A DNA stretch of 64,000 nt from Nitrospirota bacterium (GCA_963701855.1 CAVPBK010000006.1:960001-1024000), one strand, 5' to 3'; counted from the first letter of the stretch, positions 2,219-14,607 are shown. Numbers and translations: made by a program. The notes: generated by a model from the sequence alone, not told the origin.

Positions 2219-4939
<2,721 letters not shown>

Positions 4940-5115: not shown

Positions 5116-5145
5116 TTGACAGGCCTCGTGGCGGTCCATTAAACT
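5116..5145 (+). promoter_or_regulatory. Putative sigma70 promoter for the metal-uptake cluster
   Basis: TTGACA-18 nt-TAAACT, 30 nt upstream of ATG 5175. Confidence 0.55.
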
Positions 5146-5174: not shown

Positions 5175-5480
5175 ATGAACCAAGTCGCCCTCAAATTCCT
5201 GTCGATCGTTCTGGTGATCTGTGTCCTTTCCGTCGGCGGATTGGCTCAGGCGCAGTCGGTCGAACATGCCGGACACCATGCCCAGCATCAGGCTGCCACA
5301 CATGGCACCCTGCTCTGCTCTTGGATGTGTGCCGCCGGAACGATTCTCGATTCGGCGGTGGTCACGTTTCAGGCCGAACTCAGCCCTATTGCTTTCATCA
5401 CACTCCCCCATTCTGCACAGCCTTCCATTGTGGCATGCAGAACTTCACCCAGCCGCGCCCCTCCGTCTTTCTTTCTATAG
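5175..5480 (+). CDS. Exported leader peptide 1, His-rich/CxxxC with C-terminal RAPP (DUF2946/CutF/CruR-like)
   Basis: Signal peptide, HAGHHAQH, THGTLLCSWMC, ends PSRAPPSFFL. Two paralogs in the window. Confidence 0.85.
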   Translation: MNQVALKFLSIVLVICVLSVGGLAQAQSVEHAGHHAQHQAATHGTLLCSWMCAAGTILDSAVVTFQAELSPIAFITLPHSAQPSIVACRTSPSRAPPSFFL

Positions 5481-5602
5481 TTTTCGTCGATCATCGGCTC
5501 GCAACGAGAGCCGCATTCCGTCTCTCGTATGATCCACTGAGTGGGTTGTAAGGCAGCCGGATAGGGACGATTCTTAATAGAGAGAAAAGGAACAGCGTCA
5601 TA

Positions 5603-6718
5603 ATGGTACGTAAACGGTTCATACTCGGATTCATTCTCAGTCTTACACTCGTTGTCTTCTCGTGGCCCGGCGCCCAGACCGCACAGGCCTCGTGCGGATC
5701 CGTCACTTGCTTTGTCGTGATCGGGTCGGCGCAGCAAGTCTCGCCGGAAGGTCTCCTCACCGTGAATACGTTTTATAACTATACGAAGCAGTCCACCTTG
5801 CCGCCTGGGGGAAGTGGAATTATCCCGGGTGTTGACGTCGCGAATAGGAATATGATCCTCGACCATCACAAGGAGATTCGTACGATTACACAAATGGTGA
5901 CCTTGGATTTGAACTATGGCATCAGCGATCGGCTCGGCATCGAAGTCGCCATTCCCTACAAGATGCTCGAACATCACCACATTGATGGGCTCGGTGAGGA
6001 CAACGGCGGTGCCGGTGTGGCGACCAAATTCACCGATTCCGGCATTGGAGACATTTTTGTCAATCTGAAGTACAACGCGTTGCCGACGCTGACGAGTATG
6101 GTCGTCACCGGATTTGGCGTCTATCTGCCCACCGGTGAAAATAAAGCCGCAGACCCCAACGGCGGGGTCTTTGAACCGACGGCCCAGCTGGGACGAGGGC
6201 AGGTCGGCCTCCAGGGATCACTGTACGGGACCTATGAGCTCATTCCTCACCGGTTAAACCAGTTCGCCACCGCCAGTTATCGCCACACGTTCCAAAACAA
6301 CTGGGGGTATCAATTCGGCGATCAGTACGACTTGAGTACGGGCGCCAATCTCGTTGCGGCTCCGTGGCTCGTGCTGAACGCGCAGCTCAATTACCGGTAT
6401 ATGGTGCATGACTCCTGTAAATGCTCGCTGTCTCAGTCGCTAGTTCCAGGCGACCTAGGCTTCCCGGGCGAAGCAGCCCTCGTTGACGGTACCATCAAGA
6501 CTCGACCGGTGCCCACCACCGGGTCAACCTTTTTAGCCTTTACGCCCGGATTTTCCCTGAATATGGGAACATTATTGCCGGAGCAAAAGTGGGCCGACAC
6601 GTTGCAGGCCTATTTCTTTGCCCAGATTCCGGTGCAGGCGGACTTCAACGGGAACCTGCAGCAGAGCACAAGTTTCATGGCCGGGCTCACGAAGTATTTT
6701 AATTTCACCAAGTCCTGA
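5603..6718 (+). CDS. Outer-membrane beta-barrel 'transporter' family protein with N-terminal Cys motif
   Basis: Signal ending AQA then SCGSVTC, HHH patch, GIGD and LPTG motifs, amphipathic strands, aromatic C-terminus (KYFNF). Confidence 0.7.
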   Translation: MVRKRFILGFILSLTLVVFSWPGAQTAQASCGSVTCFVVIGSAQQVSPEGLLTVNTFYNYTKQSTLPPGGSGIIPGVDVANRNMILDHHKEIRTITQMVTLDLNYGISDRLGIEVAIPYKMLEHHHIDGLGEDNGGAGVATKFTDSGIGDIFVNLKYNALPTLTSMVVTGFGVYLPTGENKAADPNGGVFEPTAQLGRGQVGLQGSLYGTYELIPHRLNQFATASYRHTFQNNWGYQFGDQYDLSTGANLVAAPWLVLNAQLNYRYMVHDSCKCSLSQSLVPGDLGFPGEAALVDGTIKTRPVPTTGSTFLAFTPGFSLNMGTLLPEQKWADTLQAYFFAQIPVQADFNGNLQQSTSFMAGLTKYFNFTKS

Positions 6719-6749
6719 CCGTCAGGACGCGGGCCGAGGAGGAGGATCT

Positions 6750-7304
6750 ATGAGCAAGCGTACGGTATTGGCACTCGGGATAGTGATGGGGCTGACATTC
6801 GTTAGTCTCTGGCTCCCGACGATCTCGGTCTGGAGCATGGGCTCGCGAGTCCCGACGGTCGGAATGCAAGCTGAGGATTTTCGCTTGCCCGATCTGGCAG
6901 GCAAGGAACAGAGCCTCAGCCAGTATCGCGGCAAGATCGTGCTCCTAAACTTCTGGGCTACCTGGTGCAAACCCTGCACAACAGAAATGCCGGCCATGCA
7001 AACCATTTATGACAAGCTGCGAGACAAAGGCTTCGTGGTCCTCGCCGTCAACGAGTTAGAGGACGACGCCAAAGTGCGCGAGCACATCAAGCAGTATGGC
7101 CATACATTCCCGGTCCTGATGGATCACGACAACAAAGTCGCCAACCAGTTCGGCGTGTTCGGATTGCCCGTGAGCGTCTTCATCGACCAAGAGGGCCGAG
7201 TCCAGGAATATATCAAGGGCGGGCTGCTCACCGAACAGAAGATCGAGGAAACCGTCGCACGGATTCAGAAACAGGAGCCGGTAAAGGCAGCGGCTCTTCG
7301 ATAA
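6750..7304 (+). CDS. TlpA/ResA-like periplasmic thiol-disulfide reductase
   Basis: LNFWATWCKPC and GLPVS (cis-Pro). GGAGG RBS supports the start at 6750. Confidence 0.9.
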   Translation: MSKRTVLALGIVMGLTFVSLWLPTISVWSMGSRVPTVGMQAEDFRLPDLAGKEQSLSQYRGKIVLLNFWATWCKPCTTEMPAMQTIYDKLRDKGFVVLAVNELEDDAKVREHIKQYGHTFPVLMDHDNKVANQFGVFGLPVSVFIDQEGRVQEYIKGGLLTEQKIEETVARIQKQEPVKAAALR

Positions 7305-7310
7305 AGACTT

Positions 7311-7610
7311 ATGAACCCTAGGACTCGACAATTTGTAATCGGAGGGTTCGCGCTCTGGCTTGTGGCGCTCAGCGGAATTGTGTACCCGCAGCTCACCACC
7401 CACATGGGGCAACATGAGCATCACAACGCAACGACTCACGCCACCGCACTCTGTTCATGGCTCTGCATCGCGGCCGACGCGGTCGAGGGCACTTCAGTGT
7501 CCTTCATTCCCGTTGAACTAGTAGACTCTATCGAACAGGAGTCCCTCAGACCACAGATCAGTGCTCTCATTAGTTTTCAGCCACCAGCACGTGCCCCGCC
7601 CTTCGCATAA
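7311..7610 (+). CDS. Exported leader peptide 2 (RAPP type)
   Basis: TM/signal, HMGQHEHH, THATALCSWLC, ends PARAPPFA. Confidence 0.85.
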   Translation: MNPRTRQFVIGGFALWLVALSGIVYPQLTTHMGQHEHHNATTHATALCSWLCIAADAVEGTSVSFIPVELVDSIEQESLRPQISALISFQPPARAPPFA

Positions 7611-7785
7611 TTCCTCCTCCTTTCCAATCTTCAGAGCTTGTCAGTGATAGCGCTCACAACTTCTTTCCCCTGACAGAGGTTGCGGTCGGTCATCGATCTG
7701 ACTTGGGGGAAGGGAAGCAGCTTGACTGAAATCGCGCCTGCATGTCGCATCTTTGAAATAGAATCAGACTGAGGAGAATGAATCG

Positions 7786-7920
7786 ATGAGACACAGTCGG
7801 TCTTCGACTCGATGGTTAGGGACATCTTTCCTGACGTTCTTTTCCCTTGGTCAGTTGAAGGAAGAGACAAGGACTGAGCCTAAAGCCGAGCATACATTCA
7901 CACCGGTGGTGCTCAAGTGA
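7786..7920 (+). pseudogene. 44-aa ORF, probable internal-deletion remnant of an exported protein
   Basis: GAGGAG RBS. MRHSRSSTRWLGTSFLTFFSLGQLKEETRTEPKAEHTFTPVVLK*. Stop overlaps the tonB GTG start (GTGA). Confidence 0.45.
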
Positions 7921-8813
7921 CACTCAATACGGATTGGCGGTATCGCGTACAAGGATGGGTGGTGTCCGCGGCTTTTCACGGCCTTGCGCTCACCGTGGCC
8001 CTTGGGCTCATGGCTCAGGTCAAACCGGCAGTGCCGAAAGAGGTGTTTACGTGGGACGTCGCCTTGGTCGAACCAGAACGGATTCCAGAAACACGTCAGG
8101 CTGAATTCACGCCAACCCAGGAACCTGCAAAACCAACTCCGCGTCCGTCAACTCCCACCCCCAGACAGCCCCAAATGGTCACCCGGGAAGTGCGGCCACG
8201 CGAGGTAACACCGATTGTGCAGCGCGAAATCCGCCAGGTGGTCGAGACGAGTCAGCCGACTCAACAGATGGTGGCGGTGCACACGAGTACCGAGGCAGTC
8301 ACGCCGGTCCAGGAACAGCCTCCAGCAGAGGTTCAGCAGACCACGCAGGCTGTGGTTGAGTCGATAGCCCCTGTCGTTCAGCATGAAGGAGTGACTGCTG
8401 AACCGGCGATTAGCTCAGCGCCGGAGACTGCTGCTGCGAGCGACGCCAAACCGACTGAATCTGTCGCACAGGAGTCCGCACCACAAGTAGCAATGGCAAC
8501 CCGTCCGACTCCCGTGGTCAAAGTCGATCATGGCTGGTTGGCCGAATCGCTGAGGCGGAGACTGGCTGAGATCAAACGCTATCCAAGCACCGCGCGCCTC
8601 AATGGCTGGGAAGGGAAGGTCGTGCTGCGCGCAGTCATTCGAGCCGATGGCCATTTGTCAGAGGTAAAGGTGCATCGCAGTTCCGGCTATGAGTCACTCG
8701 ATAATGCGGCCATAGAAGCCATCCGCTTGGTCTGTCCGCTCCATATGCATCAACCACTCGGTACGCCCGAAGTAGCGGTGTATGTGCCGATGGTCTATAG
8801 CCTCGGAAGTTAG
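7917..8813 (+). CDS. tonB: Energy transducer TonB
   Basis: N-terminal TM with SAAFH, Pro/Gln-rich linker, TonB C-terminal domain YP..AR..GWEGKV and SSGYESLDNAA. Confidence 0.9.
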   Translation: MTLNTDWRYRVQGWVVSAAFHGLALTVALGLMAQVKPAVPKEVFTWDVALVEPERIPETRQAEFTPTQEPAKPTPRPSTPTPRQPQMVTREVRPREVTPIVQREIRQVVETSQPTQQMVAVHTSTEAVTPVQEQPPAEVQQTTQAVVESIAPVVQHEGVTAEPAISSAPETAAASDAKPTESVAQESAPQVAMATRPTPVVKVDHGWLAESLRRRLAEIKRYPSTARLNGWEGKVVLRAVIRADGHLSEVKVHRSSGYESLDNAAIEAIRLVCPLHMHQPLGTPEVAVYVPMVYSLGS

Positions 8814-8833
8814 CCGATAGGAATTGATGTCCT

Positions 8834-9181
8834 ATGTCTCTGCTGTCAGGCCAAGGATTGAAGATGGTCAAGCTGGCGTTGGGCCTTCTAGGCATGGTGA
8901 CTATGCCAATCTGGGCTGAGGAGAAGCAGGATGTGATGAGCGAATCGGCACGAGCGGCGCGTATCCAGCAACTGCAGCGGGATCGCGCGAAGGTCGAACG
9001 GAAATTGCGTCAACTCCGTTCGCACCCGGAAGGCACAGCTCGATTATCCGCTCCCAGAACCGAACTCTCGGACCAACCGACGAGAAGTCTGAAGGAATCG
9101 CTCGAATCCTTGCCAGGAGTGAGTGCGCGGCAAAGTTTCAGTGGGCGCGATGTACCCTTATCCATTCGTGGCTTGAAGTGA
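8834..9181 (+). CDS. Small exported protein homologous to the N-terminus/start of the plug of the downstream TonB-dependent receptor
   Basis: DQPTRSLKESLESLPGVSARQSFSGRDVPLSIRG aligns with the receptor segment SQPTRTMKESMESLPGVVLRQANGPRDFSIMIRG. Signal plus coiled coil. Start may be 8864. Confidence 0.7.
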   Translation: MSLLSGQGLKMVKLALGLLGMVTMPIWAEEKQDVMSESARAARIQQLQRDRAKVERKLRQLRSHPEGTARLSAPRTELSDQPTRSLKESLESLPGVSARQSFSGRDVPLSIRGLK

Positions 9182-9189
9182 GGTGCCCT

Positions 9190-10476
9190 ATGGTCGAACG
9201 GAAACTCAGAATTAGGCGATTAGTATGGATGGTCGGAATTGGGATCAGTACCGTCTCGCTCGCGTCAATGGCGCTGGCTGAGCCGGATCAGGCATGGCGA
9301 TTCGGCCCGAAACTGACGACTGATCACAAGGTTCGGGCCATGGTAGGTCCTTCTGTCAGAATCGACGACGAAGGTCGTATCGCACTTGCCTGGGTTGAAG
9401 AGGACAAGGACACTCGCACGGTGTTCTATGCCGGAACTAAGAGGCCGGAAGGACCGATTGGCGCTCAGGTGAAAGTGAATCAGACGAATGAGGCGCCCTA
9501 TATGCGACAGGAAGCACCAGCGCTAGCGGTGGTTGGAGACGACGTGTTTCTAACATGGGCATTAACCCATCCCAAACTGACCACGGACAAGCCGTTTTCG
9601 AACGAATTGAGGCTAAGCCGGTCCATCGACGGCGGCAAAACATTTCTGCCCTCCATCCTGGTGAATGATGACGAGCAGGTCATCGGCCACAGTTTTGACT
9701 CGATCCACGTCGCTCCTGACGGCGAGGTGCACATGTCCTGGATTGACGGGCGGGAAGGCCGGAGGGAACCCGACATATTCGTGACCCGTTCGAAGGATCA
9801 CGGTCGCACCGTCGCGAAGAACCTCAAAGTGGACGAGAATGCCTGTGTCTGTTGCCGGACCGCTCTCACTACTGGGCTTGACGGGACGCTCTTTCTGGCC
9901 TGGCGCAAGGTGCTCCCTGGCGATCTACGCGAAACGGTGGTCGCGCGTTCCACAGACGGGGGGGGCACGTTTTCTTCGCCGGTAATCGTGGGGCACGATA
10001 AGTGGGTGTTCCCCGGCTGTCCGCATCGACCTGCCTCAATCGGAACGGATCGCCTGGGGCGTCTCTATGTCGTTTGGTATACGGAAGGCGAAGATGACAC
10101 GCCGGCGATCTATGTCGCCTACTCAGATGATCGTGCAAGCTCGTTCTCCTCCAAACACAAATTGAATCTGTCCAAGGGAACCTTTCCCGACCACCCACAA
10201 ATGGCCGTTGATCCTGAGGGCCGGCTTGTCATCGCCTGGGAAGAACAATCGCCGGTTCGCCGCGAAGTCGTCGTGAGTGTCTCACTCGATCGTGGACAGA
10301 CATTTAGTCCGCCGCAGAAATTGAATGACAAGAAAGGCCAGACCCCGGCCGTCTCGATAAATTCGAAGGGGCTCGCTGCCTTGGCTTGGATGGAACACGC
10401 GATGCCGGCTCATCGCATGGTGGTCCAGACCATTCAACTCCCCCCCATAAACGTCCTCGCGAGGCAAGAGCCATAA
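9190..10476 (+). CDS. Exported sialidase-fold (Asp-box/BNR) beta-propeller with CVCC and GCPH motifs
   Basis: Asp boxes SIDGGKTF, SKDHGRT, STDGGGTF and SLDRGQTF. Signal peptide. GAGGTG RBS before ATG 9190. Confidence 0.8.
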   Translation: MVERKLRIRRLVWMVGIGISTVSLASMALAEPDQAWRFGPKLTTDHKVRAMVGPSVRIDDEGRIALAWVEEDKDTRTVFYAGTKRPEGPIGAQVKVNQTNEAPYMRQEAPALAVVGDDVFLTWALTHPKLTTDKPFSNELRLSRSIDGGKTFLPSILVNDDEQVIGHSFDSIHVAPDGEVHMSWIDGREGRREPDIFVTRSKDHGRTVAKNLKVDENACVCCRTALTTGLDGTLFLAWRKVLPGDLRETVVARSTDGGGTFSSPVIVGHDKWVFPGCPHRPASIGTDRLGRLYVVWYTEGEDDTPAIYVAYSDDRASSFSSKHKLNLSKGTFPDHPQMAVDPEGRLVIAWEEQSPVRREVVVSVSLDRGQTFSPPQKLNDKKGQTPAVSINSKGLAALAWMEHAMPAHRMVVQTIQLPPINVLARQEP

Positions 10477-10477
10477 C

Positions 10478-11026
10478 GTGGATGTGTTGGTGAAACGAGT
10501 TGTGATTGCAGCAATGCTCTCTCTCATGAGCATCGGGTCGCCTGGTCCCACACTTGCCGGCGATCCCTTTGTCGCGCTCAAAATGAGCCGGCTGCCGGCC
10601 GGCAGCATGGCGGCGCCCTTTGAACTTACGACGCTGGACGGCACTATCGTGAAGTCGAACGAGTTCGCTGGGAAGGTCGTGCTGGTGAATTTTTGGGCCA
10701 CATGGTGCGGGCCCTGCAAAGAGGAAATGCCGTCACTGGCGCATTTACAGAAGCAGTTAGACCCAACACAATTTGCCCTCCTGACCGTCACGACGGACCT
10801 GCAGCGCCATGGTATCACACACTTTCTGGCTCAGTTGGGAGTCAGTCTGCCGGTGCTCTTCGATGAAAATCAGGAAGTATCTCGGTCCTTTATGGTGCGC
10901 GGCCTCCCGACTACGATCGTGATTGCACGGGATGGCACGTTGGTCGGGCGAGCGGTCGGGCCTCGCGCCTGGGATAGTCCAGAGGCAGAGGCGGCGATGC
11001 GGCAGGTGATGGAGCACGGGAGATGA
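10478..11026 (+). CDS. TlpA-like thiol-disulfide reductase, second copy
   Basis: VNFWATWCGPC, GLPTT, and G.R.WDSPE tail. Confidence 0.9.
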   Translation: MDVLVKRVVIAAMLSLMSIGSPGPTLAGDPFVALKMSRLPAGSMAAPFELTTLDGTIVKSNEFAGKVVLVNFWATWCGPCKEEMPSLAHLQKQLDPTQFALLTVTTDLQRHGITHFLAQLGVSLPVLFDENQEVSRSFMVRGLPTTIVIARDGTLVGRAVGPRAWDSPEAEAAMRQVMEHGR

Positions 11027-11331
11027 GAAAGTGTTTCGTCCCACTGGCTCTGGGCATCGCGATGCTGTACCTGACGCTATCGGTCACTGCCATGGCCTGC
11101 CTCTTGGCACACAAGAGCCAGCCACGCTCAGCCCATCATCACACGGGCGGAATGACGCATTCTTCTCTGTGCGCCTGGGCCTGCCATGCCAACCCAACCG
11201 TTGACCTTCCGGTAACCACCCTGCAGACGCAGCCCGTTCCACTCGTGTCAATGCTGCTGTTGGTTGACTCTTCCGTCTCGTCGTTCCTCTCCCAGCAATC
11301 GACCCGATCCCGCGCGCCTCCCCAATCGTAG
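11023..11331 (+). CDS. Exported leader peptide 3 (RAPP type)
   Basis: Signal, AHHH, THSSLCAWAC, ends RSRAPPQS. ATGA overlap with the upstream tlpA. Confidence 0.85.
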   Translation: MRKCFVPLALGIAMLYLTLSVTAMACLLAHKSQPRSAHHHTGGMTHSSLCAWACHANPTVDLPVTTLQTQPVPLVSMLLLVDSSVSSFLSQQSTRSRAPPQS

Positions 11332-11457: not shown

Positions 11458-13812
11458 ATGGTGTCGTTCAAGATATTTACGCAAATCATTGTGGCAATCA
11501 CAGCACTCGAAGGCATTGCCGCTATGGATTTCGTCGCGCTGGCACAAGACTCCGCCCCGGCAGAAGCCGGGCAACAAAGTCCACGGGAACAACAACTGCG
11601 TGAACAGCTAAAAGGAATCTTGCAAGAGCTGGAGGATCTCCAGAAGAGTCATGAAAGTACGTTGCCTCCGGCCGAACGGCCCAAGACAGTGACCGAGAAA
11701 GTTGCGCCAGATCAATCGGAAGGTGCGGGAGCAATTCCAGAATATGAGTTGTCCAATCTCAGCATCGTCAGCAAACGCGTTTCCAAGCGACCGGAGGGTG
11801 TTGCGTTGTCCGCAACCATTCCAGCCGAAACGGATTCTCAGCCGACGAGAACGATGAAGGAGTCGATGGAATCGCTCCCCGGCGTGGTTTTGCGCCAAGC
11901 GAATGGACCGCGCGACTTCAGCATCATGATTCGTGGCCAAGGCGCCAAGACGACCTTCGCCATTCGGGACATTAAAATATATGAAGATGGATTTATCCAG
12001 ACGCAATCAGATGGCCTCTCACGACTTGACATTCAGGATCCCTGGTTCATGCGCAGCGTCGAGGTGACTCGCGGCGCGTCGTCCTCCTTGTACGACAACT
12101 ATGCGCTCGGCGGAATGGTGCAGTTCAGGACTAGACGAGGGAGCGACATCAATGGAGTGGAAACCTTCTTGTCCGGCGGGTCCTTCGGGTACCAAAAGTA
12201 CGGTCTCGCCGTCGGGCAAGAAACGGACAAAGTTGACATCGCGATGTTTGCGAGCCAGGTCATGGAAGACGGCTTTATCCAGAACAGTAATTACAATACC
12301 CAGACGCTCAACTTCAATTTTCGCTTCAAGGTGGATGACAAGCAGAATTTCTACTTCAAGGCGATCTCCAACTGGCTGAATACGAAAGTGCCGACCAGAC
12401 TTACCCAATCGCAGTTTATCACCAACGAACGGCAGGCAGGCGGAGCGCAAACGACATGTACGCCCGGCACCTACAACCCCGGTTGTGCCAACGCGCTCTT
12501 GCTCAATCAAAGCCGCGTCGATCATCGCACCATCTTGGGGGGTATGTACGAGCGGCAGCTCAATGCGAATACCGTTCTGACGATTGAGGCCGACTATGAC
12601 GTCAAAGATATCCAGCAAACATTTTCGCAGATCTCGGAGAATACAAATCCCAACTATAAGACCTATAGCGATTTGCGACACGATGGCCAACTTGGAGAGA
12701 TGCCGCTCAAGAGCTATGTCGGCTTCTTTGTGAATGAGATGGACCAGAAAGCCAACCAGTTTCAAAATCTTGCAGACGGTTTTGGAACGAAAGGAACCTT
12801 GCTTCAGAACTCCCGTGGATCGATTTTCAACATTGGCGCCCGCTTCCGCGAAGAACTGGAGTTCGTGCCGACTTGGACCCTGGCGGCGGGGCTTGGGTTC
12901 GAACAGTCCCGCGTCAGCACGCAGGCGACTAACTATAATAATGCTGGCGCGGTGGCCTCTCGTGCCAATGCGAGTCTTGATTACTCAAACTGGGCCCCGG
13001 AAATGTCGCTCACCTGGAAACCAGCGGAAGCCTATCGACATTGGACTCGGGCCTCGACGGGGTACGGTATCCCACAAATGAGCCAGCTCTTGCGCGATCC
13101 TATCACCGGGCTTCCCGGAACCAACTTTAATCTGAAACCGCAGAAGAACCTCAACATAGAAATCGGCACGGAGTCCAAGCTCCACAAGACCCTCACCGTC
13201 CAACTTGTCGGGTTCTTGACCTTCTTCAAAGACGAGATTATCACGCAGACGGTATCAGGGAATAACACGGCTTCCATCAATGCAGACTCCTCCAAGTACA
13301 TGGGCATTGAAGCCTCCTATGATTGGCGACCGATGACAGGCCTGCGACTCTCCGGTGCCTATACACACATTGATGCCAGATACGTTAATTTCAGCGACAA
13401 AAGTTCGGTGGGTGGAGTGCCAACGGTGTTTGTGCGTGACGGGAGGCAAGTCCCCAACGTTCCGACCGATGTGGTAAATTCCAAAGTTGCTTATGACCAT
13501 GCGCCCACCGGGTGGGGCGGCTGGCTCGAAGGCAGTTATTATAATAGCTATTTCCTAAACAACAGCAACACGTTCAGCATTCCATCCTATGTGGTCGCGA
13601 ATGTGAATGTGCACAAGAGTTTCGAGCTGGAAAACTCCTGGTTCCGATTCGCTAAGTTGTATCTGGAGGTGGACAACATCGCGGATAAGAAATACGCCGC
13701 ATCCGGCGCAGTGATCGGAGGTGAAACTGCCGCCACTGCTTCGGGCAATCAGGCTTTTTTCGCTGGCTATGGCCGGGCCATCTATGGCGGGGTGACGCTG
13801 GGGCTGTTCTAG
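11458..13812 (+). CDS. TonB-dependent outer-membrane receptor
   Basis: Plug motifs (LPGV, IRG, VEVTRGASSSLY, ALGGMV), DNIADKKY, GRAIYGGVTLGLF C-terminus. AGGAG RBS favours ATG 11458. Confidence 0.93.
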   Translation: MVSFKIFTQIIVAITALEGIAAMDFVALAQDSAPAEAGQQSPREQQLREQLKGILQELEDLQKSHESTLPPAERPKTVTEKVAPDQSEGAGAIPEYELSNLSIVSKRVSKRPEGVALSATIPAETDSQPTRTMKESMESLPGVVLRQANGPRDFSIMIRGQGAKTTFAIRDIKIYEDGFIQTQSDGLSRLDIQDPWFMRSVEVTRGASSSLYDNYALGGMVQFRTRRGSDINGVETFLSGGSFGYQKYGLAVGQETDKVDIAMFASQVMEDGFIQNSNYNTQTLNFNFRFKVDDKQNFYFKAISNWLNTKVPTRLTQSQFITNERQAGGAQTTCTPGTYNPGCANALLLNQSRVDHRTILGGMYERQLNANTVLTIEADYDVKDIQQTFSQISENTNPNYKTYSDLRHDGQLGEMPLKSYVGFFVNEMDQKANQFQNLADGFGTKGTLLQNSRGSIFNIGARFREELEFVPTWTLAAGLGFEQSRVSTQATNYNNAGAVASRANASLDYSNWAPEMSLTWKPAEAYRHWTRASTGYGIPQMSQLLRDPITGLPGTNFNLKPQKNLNIEIGTESKLHKTLTVQLVGFLTFFKDEIITQTVSGNNTASINADSSKYMGIEASYDWRPMTGLRLSGAYTHIDARYVNFSDKSSVGGVPTVFVRDGRQVPNVPTDVVNSKVAYDHAPTGWGGWLEGSYYNSYFLNNSNTFSIPSYVVANVNVHKSFELENSWFRFAKLYLEVDNIADKKYAASGAVIGGETAATASGNQAFFAGYGRAIYGGVTLGLF

Positions 13813-13932: not shown

Positions 13933-14112
13933 ATGGACAAACAACTGCTCAAAATCAATGAAGCGGCGGTGGCCTTAAATGTAAGCCGCTGGACAGTCTA
14001 TCGGTGGGTCGAAGAAGGGAGGTTGAGCGCCACAAAAATCGGCAAGCAGAGCTTGCGCGTGATCGGGAACTCGGTCGACAAGCTGATCTCCGAAAATAGG
14101 ACTGATCACTGA
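13933..14112 (+). CDS. Excisionase-like helix-turn-helix protein (59 aa)
   Basis: MDKQLLKINEAAVALNVSRWTVYRWVEEGRLSATKIGKQSLRV...*. GAGGT RBS. Below the ORF-track cutoff. Confidence 0.85.
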   Translation: MDKQLLKINEAAVALNVSRWTVYRWVEEGRLSATKIGKQSLRVIGNSVDKLISENRTDH

Positions 14113-14180: not shown

Positions 14181-14607
14181 ATGGATGGACTCAAGGAACT
14201 CGTCGAGTACGGCGTCATCGGGCTTTTGCTAGGGCTGAGTTTCTGGGCCATCGGGGTGGCGAGTGGAGCGTTGGCTGTTCTATCGGCAGGTGGATATCAG
14301 GCAGTTTCCCACGCTGGATCTGTGCGAGATGACGTTGACCAAGCGGCTAGTGGTGATCGGTACCGTGGCGGCCAATGCGCCCTATATCGGACTGCTCGGA
14401 ACAGTGCTCGGCATTATGCTCACGTTCCATGCGATGGGCACATCCGGCGCATTGGCGGTGGCATCGATCATGATCGGCTTGAGCCTTGCGCTCAAGGCCA
14501 CCGCGGCGGGGCTACTGGTCGCCATTCCTTGCGTGGTCATGAACAACGTGCTCCGGCGTCGGGTGAGCGAACTGCTCGCGCAGTACAAGGCACAGCATGG
14601 ATCGTGA
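14181..14607 (+). pseudogene. exbB: ExbB (MotA/TolQ/ExbB family), +1 frameshift
   Basis: MDGLKELVEYGVIGLL...AIGVA continues as VERWLFY...APYIGLLGTVLGIM...ALKATAAGLLVAIP after an extra A at ~14262. Confidence 0.85.

Follow-up and report, generated by a model that had tools for sequence, protein, structure and literature searches.

An uptake gene cluster in a Nitrospirota bacterium contains three short open reading frames (ORFs), which we call leaders 1, 2, and 3, and a fourth copy is present in the same genome. The cluster is part of a stretch of 64,000 nucleotides (GCA_963701855.1, CAVPBK010000006.1:960001-1024000), referred to here as the window. We conclude that the four ORFs probably encode cis-acting leader peptides, rather than end-product proteins, which would sense a metal and arrest the ribosome at an RAPP motif. 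This conclusion starts from three observations: the paralogy of the ORFs, the family-wide conservation of their motifs and spacing, and their gene context.

Three paralogous ORFs share a His/Cys motif, a spacer of fixed length, and RAPP

Leaders 1, 2, and 3 lie where a first-pass annotation of the window had placed them and encode 101, 99, and 102 amino acids (aa), respectively, within its range of 99-102 aa (Table 1). Each begins with a basic n-region and a hydrophobic stretch of 15-20 residues, read from the sequence as a predicted export signal or transmembrane (TM) segment. A His-rich patch follows and then the common motif TH-x3/4-LC[SA]WxC. All of these shared elements, which the first-pass annotation had pointed out, are present in the three ORFs, and pairwise BLASTP comparisons (E = 3e-14, 2e-09, and 3e-06) identify the leaders as paralogues, not chance likenesses. 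From the last Cys of the motif to RAPP, the linkers measure 41, 41, and 42 residues; as that annotation had also noticed, they diverge in sequence while keeping their length, and this holds for the wider family as well. RAPP itself is not terminal, as had been claimed, since four, two, and two residues follow it in leaders 1, 2, and 3, respectively.

Searching the genome with a profile of the three leaders recovered the fourth paralogue (G000:C5:305470-305754, E 6e-07; locus L004 1423-1791). Its sequence runs ...HELAAADHHDGHEHSDNDLCQWLQHH...SRAPPCK, with the motif LCQWLQ, which has no second Cys. It is followed by the gene for another TonB-dependent receptor, in which the N-terminal domain has a weak match to the NikL-type nickel/cobalt protein model NF058648 (E 1.2e-05). 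Judged from sequence, the different ligand set of this copy and the NikL-like domain of its receptor hint at another metal.

A family conserved in motif and spacing

A word-indexed protein search with leader 1 returned 599 homologues; the 120 that were listed are all hypothetical or unnamed proteins, and none carries a Pfam domain. The names given to close homologues put the organism within Nitrospira/Nitrospiraceae. When 1.84 billion cluster representatives were searched exhaustively with a profile, 311 clusters (50% identity) matched at E<=1e-3 and 103 at E<=1e-10. Motifs were counted in the best 150 of the 311 cluster representatives. Both C-x-W and R-x-P-P are present in 137 of the 150, and the other 13, each lacking one motif, are by eye truncated or frameshifted fragments. 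Among the 137, the arrest motif is RAPP in 67, RGPP in 64, RSPP in 5, and RDPP in 1. Measured up to the Arg from position five of CxWxC, the linker has 41 residues in 117, 42 in 17, and 43 in 1, with two outliers of the regular expression, and a tail of 1-9 residues stands behind PP in 134. The expectation that homologues would keep an RAPP-type motif at a fixed spacing is thus satisfied in this profile survey, both motifs occurring in 137/150 and a linker of 41-43 residues, equal to 45-47 when counted from the invariant first Cys, in 135/137. The second Cys of CxWxC is present in 124 of the 137; the remaining 13 have the first Cys alone, the form also seen in the fourth paralogue.

Two alignments describe these constraints residue by residue. 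In an alignment of 106 sequences with a mean column identity of 29%, C48, W50, R94, P96, and P97 are invariant, and H31, H35, H38, H43, and C52 are conserved in at least 90%. An alignment of 17 sequences has no gaps at all between CAAGQ and SR[AG]PP and no conserved residue in between. Because this stretch is ungapped without being conserved in sequence, and because the linker measures 41-43 residues in 135 of 137 representatives, the linker length holds as a "ruler" throughout the family.

The variants at the C-terminus can be compared with published measurements. In a 2025 study, RAPP and RGPP were the strongest arrest cores, RSPP and RDPP were partly permissive, and RAPP/RGPP motifs were strongly avoided in bacterial proteomes (PMC12992588). 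The four variants found in the family are exactly this published strong and permissive set.

Small exported proteins with such a patch could instead be periplasmic metallochaperones or metal buffers that pass copper or another metal to the barrel, TlpA-like, or receptor proteins encoded nearby, with R[AG]PP serving as a structural or sorting element. The His/Cys patch is indeed the best conserved part of the peptide, and an export signal is predicted. In other bacteria, moreover, copper chaperones (Sco, PCuAC) and TlpA-type reductases cooperate. However, 41 residues, or about 40% of the protein, keep their length and not their sequence, which fits a spacer and not a folded domain. An AlphaFold2 (AF2) model of leader 1 likewise contains helices at residues 3-32 and 46-56, the second of them over the Cys motif, with the spacer and the rest as coil and no globular fold (predicted template modeling score [pTM] 0.37). 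At the C-terminus, nothing is constrained except R-[AGSD]-P-P, behind which stand 1-9 free residues; this is the published arrest set that proteomes avoid (PMC12992588). Behind each copy there is a long gap and a same-strand gene. Taken together, these features make a metallochaperone quite unlikely.

Distribution among the Nitrospirota

The family matches 130 of 401 genomes sampled across the phylum, with 1-9 copies per genome. It is present in all 75 sampled genomes of the window's own family (the window's genome, G000, excluded) and in all 40 of a second family of the same order. Two further families have it in 2/2 and 3/3 genomes and one distant family in 3/64; most others have none. Among the matches listed, copies often occur in pairs, about 1 kb or about 2.1 kb apart. 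Scanning 185,579 species genomes for the patterns LC[SA]W[ML]CAAG and HAHHx[AK][ATQ][TM]H[AGS] gave 273 relatives. Of the 80 retained, 77 are labeled Nitrospira, Nitrospiraceae, Nitrospirae, or Nitrospirota, with N. moscoviensis and N. lenta among them, and 3 are labeled "uncultured bacterium." Such a scan is blind to very divergent relatives, and we do not claim that the family is absent outside the Nitrospirota.

Members of the genus Nitrospira, which include complete ammonia oxidizers, are the main nitrite oxidizers of soils, waters, and treatment plants. Their respiratory and nitrogen enzymes need trace metals, and we know of nothing reported on how they regulate metal import. The presence of the leaders in all sampled genomes of two families, mostly as multiple copies, suggests that nascent-chain sensing is a standard way of controlling outer-membrane uptake in these Nitrospirales.

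A model for metal-dependent arrest

Two characterized leader peptides respond to copper. CruR (Bp2923) of Bordetella pertussis, the prototype of DUF2946, is an exported protein of 145 aa with a CXXC motif, a 45-residue spacer, and RAPP three residues from its end, and it is followed by a 162-nt gap and the receptor BfrG/CrtA (PMC9426467). Without copper, the stall of CruR at RAPP blocks Rho-dependent termination, and copper relieves the stall through CXXC; control is lost when five residues are added to the spacer and does not require the signal peptide (PMC9426467). In toeprints, RAPP's two Pro codons are placed in the P and A sites when the ribosome arrests (PMC12992588). Rhodobacter CutF combines a Sec signal with a CxxxC motif and a PPP stall site, and its stall in the presence of copper opens a stem-loop that masks the cutO Shine-Dalgarno sequence (PMC9973294; bioRxiv 10.1101/2025.02.05.636593).

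For the Nitrospirota leaders, we infer the arrest and its RNA mechanism, the metal, and the direction of control as follows. The N-terminal signal or TM segment would target the peptide to the membrane, and the peptide would present a metal site composed of the His-rich patch and C-x-W-x-C. At a distance of 45-46 residues past the invariant Cys, the ribosome would arrest at R-A/G-P-P, its P and A sites on the codons of the two Pro. Whether the arrest lasts would depend on whether the metal site, by then just out of the exit tunnel, has bound its ligand or folded. A lasting stall would keep the downstream gene on, either by opening an mRNA helix over its ribosome-binding site, in the way of SecM and CutF, or by blocking Rho, in the way of CruR. 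Release of the arrest would let the switch close.

If the arrest geometry is that of CruR, the nascent chain would be 96 residues long, with the invariant Cys 48 residues and the His patch 53-65 residues from the P-site residue. Because the exit tunnel usually holds 30-40 residues, the metal site would then lie just outside it, a position that could allow folding or ligand binding to pull on the arrest sequence. The first-pass annotation had described the linker as a ruler running from the peptidyl-transferase center to the translocon. Its fixed length is a property of the whole family; the translocon end of the ruler is conjecture, because CruR works without its signal peptide (PMC9426467).

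Since the putative targets are import components (an outer-membrane channel, TonB, and a TonB-dependent receptor), the direction of control is likely to be that of CruR, with arrest released and the genes off when the cell is metal-replete. Copper is the metal that we favor, on the basis of analogy, the TlpA/Sco-like neighbors, and the relatives of the receptor.

Gene context of the leaders

From leader 1 to the receptor, all genes of the cluster are on the plus strand (Table 1). Each leader had been annotated as followed by a gap of more than 120 nt and then an envelope gene, a description that fits leader 1 (122 nt up to the ATG at 5603) and has to be qualified for the other two. Behind leader 2, the gap is 306 nt to the tonB GTG at 7917, yet 175 nt to a 44-codon ORF. 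Behind leader 3, the earliest possible start of the receptor gene, TTG 11413, comes after 81 nt, and two ATGs (11452 and 11458) come after 120-126 nt, the second of them with a well-spaced AAGGAG upstream. Leaders 2 and 3 each sit directly behind a same-strand TlpA-like gene, the first of which ends 6 nt upstream of leader 2; they are therefore not operon heads.

Table 1. Features of the uptake cluster and its leaders, in window coordinates
Feature	Position	Strand	Evidence and remarks
Promoter-like site TTGACA-18-TAAACT	5116..5145	+	10/12 matches; ~30 nt 5' of leader 1
Leader peptide 1	5175..5480	+	101 aa; signal-like N-terminus, His patch, C48-x-W-x-C52, 41-aa linker, R94APP, tail SFFL
Leader 1 RAPP codons, predicted arrest point	5454..5465	+	By analogy with the CruR toeprint (PMC12992588)
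Leader 1 tail codons, 5' arm of predicted long-range helix	5466..5477	+	RNAalifold
Purine tract TAGAGAGAAAAGG, 3' arm of predicted helix	5578..5590	+	Overlaps the barrel gene's AAGGA Shine-Dalgarno
Outer-membrane beta-barrel, Phenol_MetA_deg (COG4313) family	5603..6718	+	Pfam E 4.6e-06
TlpA/ResA-like periplasmic thiol:disulfide oxidoreductase 1	6747..7304	+	Pfam AhpC-TSA E 1.1e-31; NCBIfam ResA and TlpA matches under cut-offs
Leader peptide 2	7311..7610	+	99 aa; CxWxC 48-52, 41-aa linker, RAPP at 94 (codons 7590-7601), tail FA
44-codon ORF (MRHSRSSTRWLGTSF...)	7786..7920	+	GAGGAG Shine-Dalgarno; overlaps tonB start
TonB	7917..8813	+	GTG start 7917; Pfam TonB_C E 5.9e-15; TIGR01352 above cut-off
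Truncated TonB-dependent receptor remnant (N-terminal extension and plug start)	8834..9181	+	Pfam Plug E 4.8e-05
BNR/beta-propeller protein	9178..10476	+	Pfam BNR_2 E 9.9e-09; similar gene recurs in related loci
TlpA-like thioredoxin 2	10478..11026	+	Pfam Redoxin E 2.3e-24; stop overlaps leader 3 start (ATGA)
Leader peptide 3	11023..11331	+	102 aa; CxWxC 50-54, 42-aa linker, RAPP at 97 (codons 11311-11322), tail QS
TonB-dependent receptor	11458..13812	+	Pfam Plug and barrel; start uncertain (11413, 11452, or 11458)

Context in other genomes was sampled in 20 stretches of 12-17 kb, which hold 38 family ORFs, up to five per stretch. The next same-strand gene is most often a homologue of the window barrel (18 of 38; 9 by Pfam and 9 by BLASTP, E 3e-146 to 5e-06). 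Otherwise, it encodes a TonB-dependent receptor or plug (5/38), a TlpA-like AhpC/TSA protein (4/38), TonB (2/38), an approximately 500-aa protein of unknown family (2), a BNR protein (1), or a helix-turn-helix (HTH) protein (1). Five of the 38 have no clear next gene because our crude gene caller took the opposite strand or the locus ended. The stop codon of a TlpA-like gene lies no more than 37 nt upstream, on the same strand, of 8 of the 38 ORFs. In single-copy genomes of the second family, the order is leader, barrel, and then a CarboxypepD_reg-like protein.

On its other side, leader 1 is divergent to secA (2219-4939, minus strand; identified by reading the sequence, in the window). An opposite-strand ORF of 904-939 aa occupies the secA position in 9 of 20 related loci (L048, L050-L057), so this synteny is conserved.

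Such neighbors would suit arrest leaders that sense the thiol-redox state of the envelope, or the state of Sec and translocation, instead of a metal. A C48-C52 disulfide or pulling by the translocon would then release the arrest, with feedback on the TlpA-like oxidoreductases or on envelope proteins. Consistent with this idea, TlpA-like genes are tightly linked to the leaders, both in the window (6 nt before leader 2 and overlapping the start of leader 3) and in the other genomes, where they closely precede 8 and directly follow 4 of the 38 family ORFs, and the position opposite secA recurs. Published precedents are a Streptomyces RAPP/RGPP leader with a Cys pair, which precedes a thioredoxin gene (PMC12992588), and the CutF model, which invokes disulfide formation (bioRxiv 10.1101/2025.02.05.636593). 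However, four near-invariant histidines beside the cysteines point to a metal, and one subfamily does without C52. In addition, the main downstream genes are import components, not redox enzymes, and secA is beyond the cis control of leader 1 because it is on the opposite strand. We consider redox or Sec sensing unlikely.

Small Cys/His-rich peptides beside TonB-dependent uptake genes could also be precursors of a ribosomally made, modified product, for example, a chalkophore-like metal chelator imported by the TonB-dependent receptor. MbnPH-like genes are present in some DUF2946 operons (PMC9426467). Among the scanned neighbors, however, there is no gene for a modifying enzyme, protease, or exporter, and the conserved motif lies mid-peptide behind a predicted Sec-type signal instead of in a core at the C-terminus. 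Neither the invariant RxPP tail nor the length-only spacer would have a role. A precursor peptide is, in our judgment, highly improbable.

Within the interpretation as metal-sensing arrest leaders, the cluster could be read jointly as a modular relay, in which cassettes of TlpA-like reductase, leader, and outer-membrane gene follow one another on a single transcript and each stall gates the next module. The translation of each leader would be coupled to that of the preceding gene, and the adjacent TlpA would keep the cysteines of the nascent sensor reduced. The paralogues would differ in their ligands: most have the His patch with CxWxC, and the fourth copy has HELAAADHDGHEH...CQW.QHH. The cluster would thus read several metals, or a metal and thiol-redox, and set the ratio of channel, TonB, and receptor post-transcriptionally. 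This broader proposal is doubtful; a relay of this kind is not described for CruR or CutF.

The remaining genes of the cluster

The barrel protein contains 8 Met and 8 His in 371 aa. Its AF2 model (predicted local distance difference test score 71.5, pTM 0.71) has a FapF/COG4313-like fold, and the best Foldseek matches of the model are FapF (5o67/5o65) and the COG4313 channel 4rl8, with E values of 2.5e-13 to 5e-11.

The first-pass annotation had listed a "remnant plus tonB" behind leader 2. The 44-codon ORF found ahead of tonB (7786-7920) looks instead like a conserved small gene, because it is kept at the protein level in four other Nitrospira loci (tblastn: L097 98%, L088 53%, L120 48%, L100 41%). 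It has one hydrophobic stretch and may encode a small membrane protein that is translationally coupled to TonB. The true receptor remnant is the ORF at 8834-9181, between tonB and the BNR gene; it shares 45% identity over 55 aa (E 3e-13) with residues 106-160 of the intact receptor, and from this sequence match we assign it as a receptor pseudogene.

In the PDB, the best sequence matches of the intact receptor are PqqU/YncD (E 2e-38). No NCBIfam model matches it above cut-off, and the nearest, PqqU, falls far under its own. We had considered a CrtA-type copper receptor identity for this protein, which these comparisons do not establish. Distant relatives of the receptor on plasmids (tblastn, 24-30% identity) include those of Ralstonia and Bradyrhizobium, which have an annotated DUF2946 gene upstream, and one in Acetobacter with a PepSY gene downstream, as in cruR-crtA-bp2921.

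The promoter-like site ahead of leader 1 carries little weight, since the region holds 5 such sites and shuffled sequences 4.8. A terminator-like hairpin at 7815-7835 was set aside because the 12 such sites in total fall within the shuffle range (7.9 +/- 3.5). Two further ORFs on the plus strand lie 3' of the receptor: a small, apparently excisionase-like HTH ORF at 13933-14112 and one at 14263-14607 that may be an ExbB/MotA-type fragment.

A predicted helix at the leader 1 junction

We analyzed the junction between leader 1 and the barrel gene with RNAalifold, using 34 orthologues. Alignment columns 18-23, which contain the tail codons, pair with columns 142-147, which contain the purine tract. 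The extended helix of 12 pairs is 90.1% paired. In an extended structure of 36 pairs, 90.3% of cells are paired, versus 44-51% for slid partners, and nine pairs show double changes, versus 4.1 +/- 1.7 in shuffles (nine were reached in 4 of 500). A ribosome stalled on the leader 1 RAPP would cover the 5' arm of this predicted helix and free the barrel Shine-Dalgarno sequence, as in SecM and CutF.

Results that argue against metal-sensing arrest leaders

Several results weigh against our interpretation, some of them at the RNA level. Across 174 junctions, the duplex between RxPP/tail and the downstream region is no better than that of shuffled segments (median z 0.2), and the tail shows no unusual conservation at synonymous sites. 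As partner of the Shine-Dalgarno region, the RxPP/tail window ranks first in 25 of 148 junctions, versus about 10% expected, which is no clear support. Following these duplex-energy, synonymous-site, and sliding-window controls, we dropped Shine-Dalgarno masking as a family-wide rule and kept it as a prediction for leader 1. The intergenic regions, with C/G contents of 22/28, 24/25, and 26/25%, lack the C-rich, G-poor composition that rut sites often have. Rho anti-termination is possible, the genome having a rho gene, and it is without compositional support because the gaps are not C-rich. We give Shine-Dalgarno unmasking and Rho anti-termination roughly equal weight.

Other results concern the metal and the ancestry of the family. 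A copper site built on two Cys is not universal, because 13 of the 137 motif-bearing representatives, like the fourth paralogue, lack the second Cys. The receptor cannot be placed in a copper-specific family, and no gene of the cluster is copper-specific. No family member reaches the gathering score of 23.7 bits for Pfam DUF2946 (PF11162), whether among the leaders, the 106 aligned members, or in a whole-genome scan. When the 106-sequence alignment was compared by hhalign with seven plasmid DUF2946 proteins, the match spanned the last 22 columns only (probability 76.9%, E 2.1e-05). As it covers only the tail, common descent with DUF2946 is not shown, and the likeness could be convergent.

Relationship to DUF2946

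Under that threshold, the PF11162 scores are uneven. Leader 3 scores 12.3 bits, and leaders 1 and 2 have no match. PF11162 is nonetheless the commonest Pfam match among the members, found in 22 of 106 at E<=1 with a best E of 0.001, which is under the cut-off by extrapolation. In the Atlas, it is carried by 12 of the 30 nearest named clusters, which we treat as a lead only.

The seven proteins used for comparison, a small set, came from a PF11162 scan of five plasmid records. From the second Cys of CxxC to the Arg, 6 of the 7 measure 45-46 residues, and the seventh has no R.PP. In the leader family, it is the invariant first Cys that lies 45 (41+4) or 46 residues from the Arg, and this is the sole Cys kept in the CxWxQ subfamily. 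The comparison with DUF2946 that had been proposed for the leaders is hence favorable in Cys motif, RAPP-type end, and spacing, and unfavorable in the PF11162 threshold. The broader claim of the first-pass annotation, that metal-sensing RAPP leaders of the CruR/CutF type are used several times in one uptake cluster, gains from the conservation of motif and spacing, the gene context, and this Cys-to-Arg distance; its metal and RNA mechanism we infer.

Some plasmid loci carry features of their own. On one plasmid, two DUF2946 copies lie 2.5 kb apart. On the Acetobacter plasmid NZ_CP011122.1, a "hypothetical protein" (L138 3447-3836) is encoded upstream of a TonB-dependent receptor and a PepSY gene. 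It lacks CxxC, its C-terminus reads ...IRGPPTPKRTSLCPQGPPV, and it resembles a further RGPP leader variant that has gone unannotated. The same record encodes a 182-aa DUF2946 member (L146 1498-2043) with RAPP and RGPP 13 residues apart near its C-terminus, potentially two arrest sites in a single leader.

Comparison with known systems

The first-pass annotation knew of no description of this variant or arrangement, which overstates its novelty. CutF has CxxxC (PMC9973294), and small RAPP/RGPP proteins that precede TonB-related and copper-related genes have been surveyed in many Gram-negative phyla (PMC12992588). The mechanism class, the CxxxC spacing, and the alternation of RAPP and RGPP are therefore already in print. 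A survey of CutF-like proteins counted 5,334 in 29 clusters, mostly from Pseudomonadota and Bacteroidota (PMC9973294). The string "Nitrospir" was not found in the text and supplements of PMC9426467 or in the text and three supplementary files of PMC9973294, File S1 being outside this scope, and the available parts of PMC12992588 name no Nitrospirales family and mention Nitrospirota solely in a motif-depletion statistic. We found no description of the leader family or of its repeated operon-internal use in the literature on DUF2946 and copper, on RAPP arrest peptides, and on Nitrospira TonB/copper leaders, a scope that does not extend to the PMC12992588 figures or to File S1 of PMC9973294.

The new elements are a lineage-wide, unannotated family; its universality and multiplicity in the Nitrospirales; its operon-internal, TlpA-coupled placement; the barrel as its main target; and a Cys-to-Arg distance of 45-46 residues that coincides with that of DUF2946. 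For the study of arrest peptides, the family supplies a large natural set in which RAPP and RGPP alternate behind a spacer that is strictly conserved in length and free in sequence. The Cys-to-Arg distance, equal to that of CruR, offers a testable geometric rule for coupling ligand binding at the tunnel exit to the peptidyl-transferase center. The leaders are also placed inside operons, not at the head alone.

ApdA, ApdP, and SecM-related arrest peptides resemble the family in having R-A/G-P-P near the C-terminus of a small, localized protein encoded upstream of a same-strand gene. Unlike the leaders, these prototypes monitor the activity of Sec or YidC and have no metal site.

With CutF (Rhodobacter capsulatus, cutFOG), the leaders have in common the Cys spacing, CxxxC corresponding to CxWxC, and, by prediction, a Sec-type signal and a Pro-rich stall site at the C-terminus. 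The helix predicted at the leader 1 junction would be comparable to the stem-loop that masks the Shine-Dalgarno sequence behind CutF. In contrast to the leaders, CutF stalls at PPP, which is EF-P-sensitive, and not at R[AG]PP, and it controls a detoxifying multicopper oxidase that is on with copper, whereas the targets of the leader family are import components.

The closest parallels are with CruR and DUF2946. These, too, are small peptides with a Cys motif, a length-conserved spacer, and RAPP 2-4 residues from the C-terminus, followed by a long gap and a TonB-dependent receptor gene. Over 95% of DUF2946 proteins are reported to have an N-terminal export signal, and RGPP and RDPP variants are found among the plasmid members as well. 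AhpC/TSA (TlpA-like) genes are found in the operons of both groups: AhpC_TSA, Sco, and PCuAC genes are common in DUF2946 operons, where the DUF2946 gene is reported to come first (PMC9426467). Unlike these, many copies of the leader family are operon-internal, right behind a TlpA-like or other gene. The leaders further differ from CruR in size (approximately 100 aa, versus 145 aa), in having C-x-W-x-C preceded by an H-x3-H-x2-H-x4-H patch instead of CxxC, in intergenic regions that are not C-rich and G-poor, in occurring in several copies per locus, and in having a FapF/COG4313-type barrel as their commonest target. Judging from these likenesses and differences, the family probably works as CruR and CutF do, and it may be either a very divergent branch of DUF2946 or a convergent analogue.

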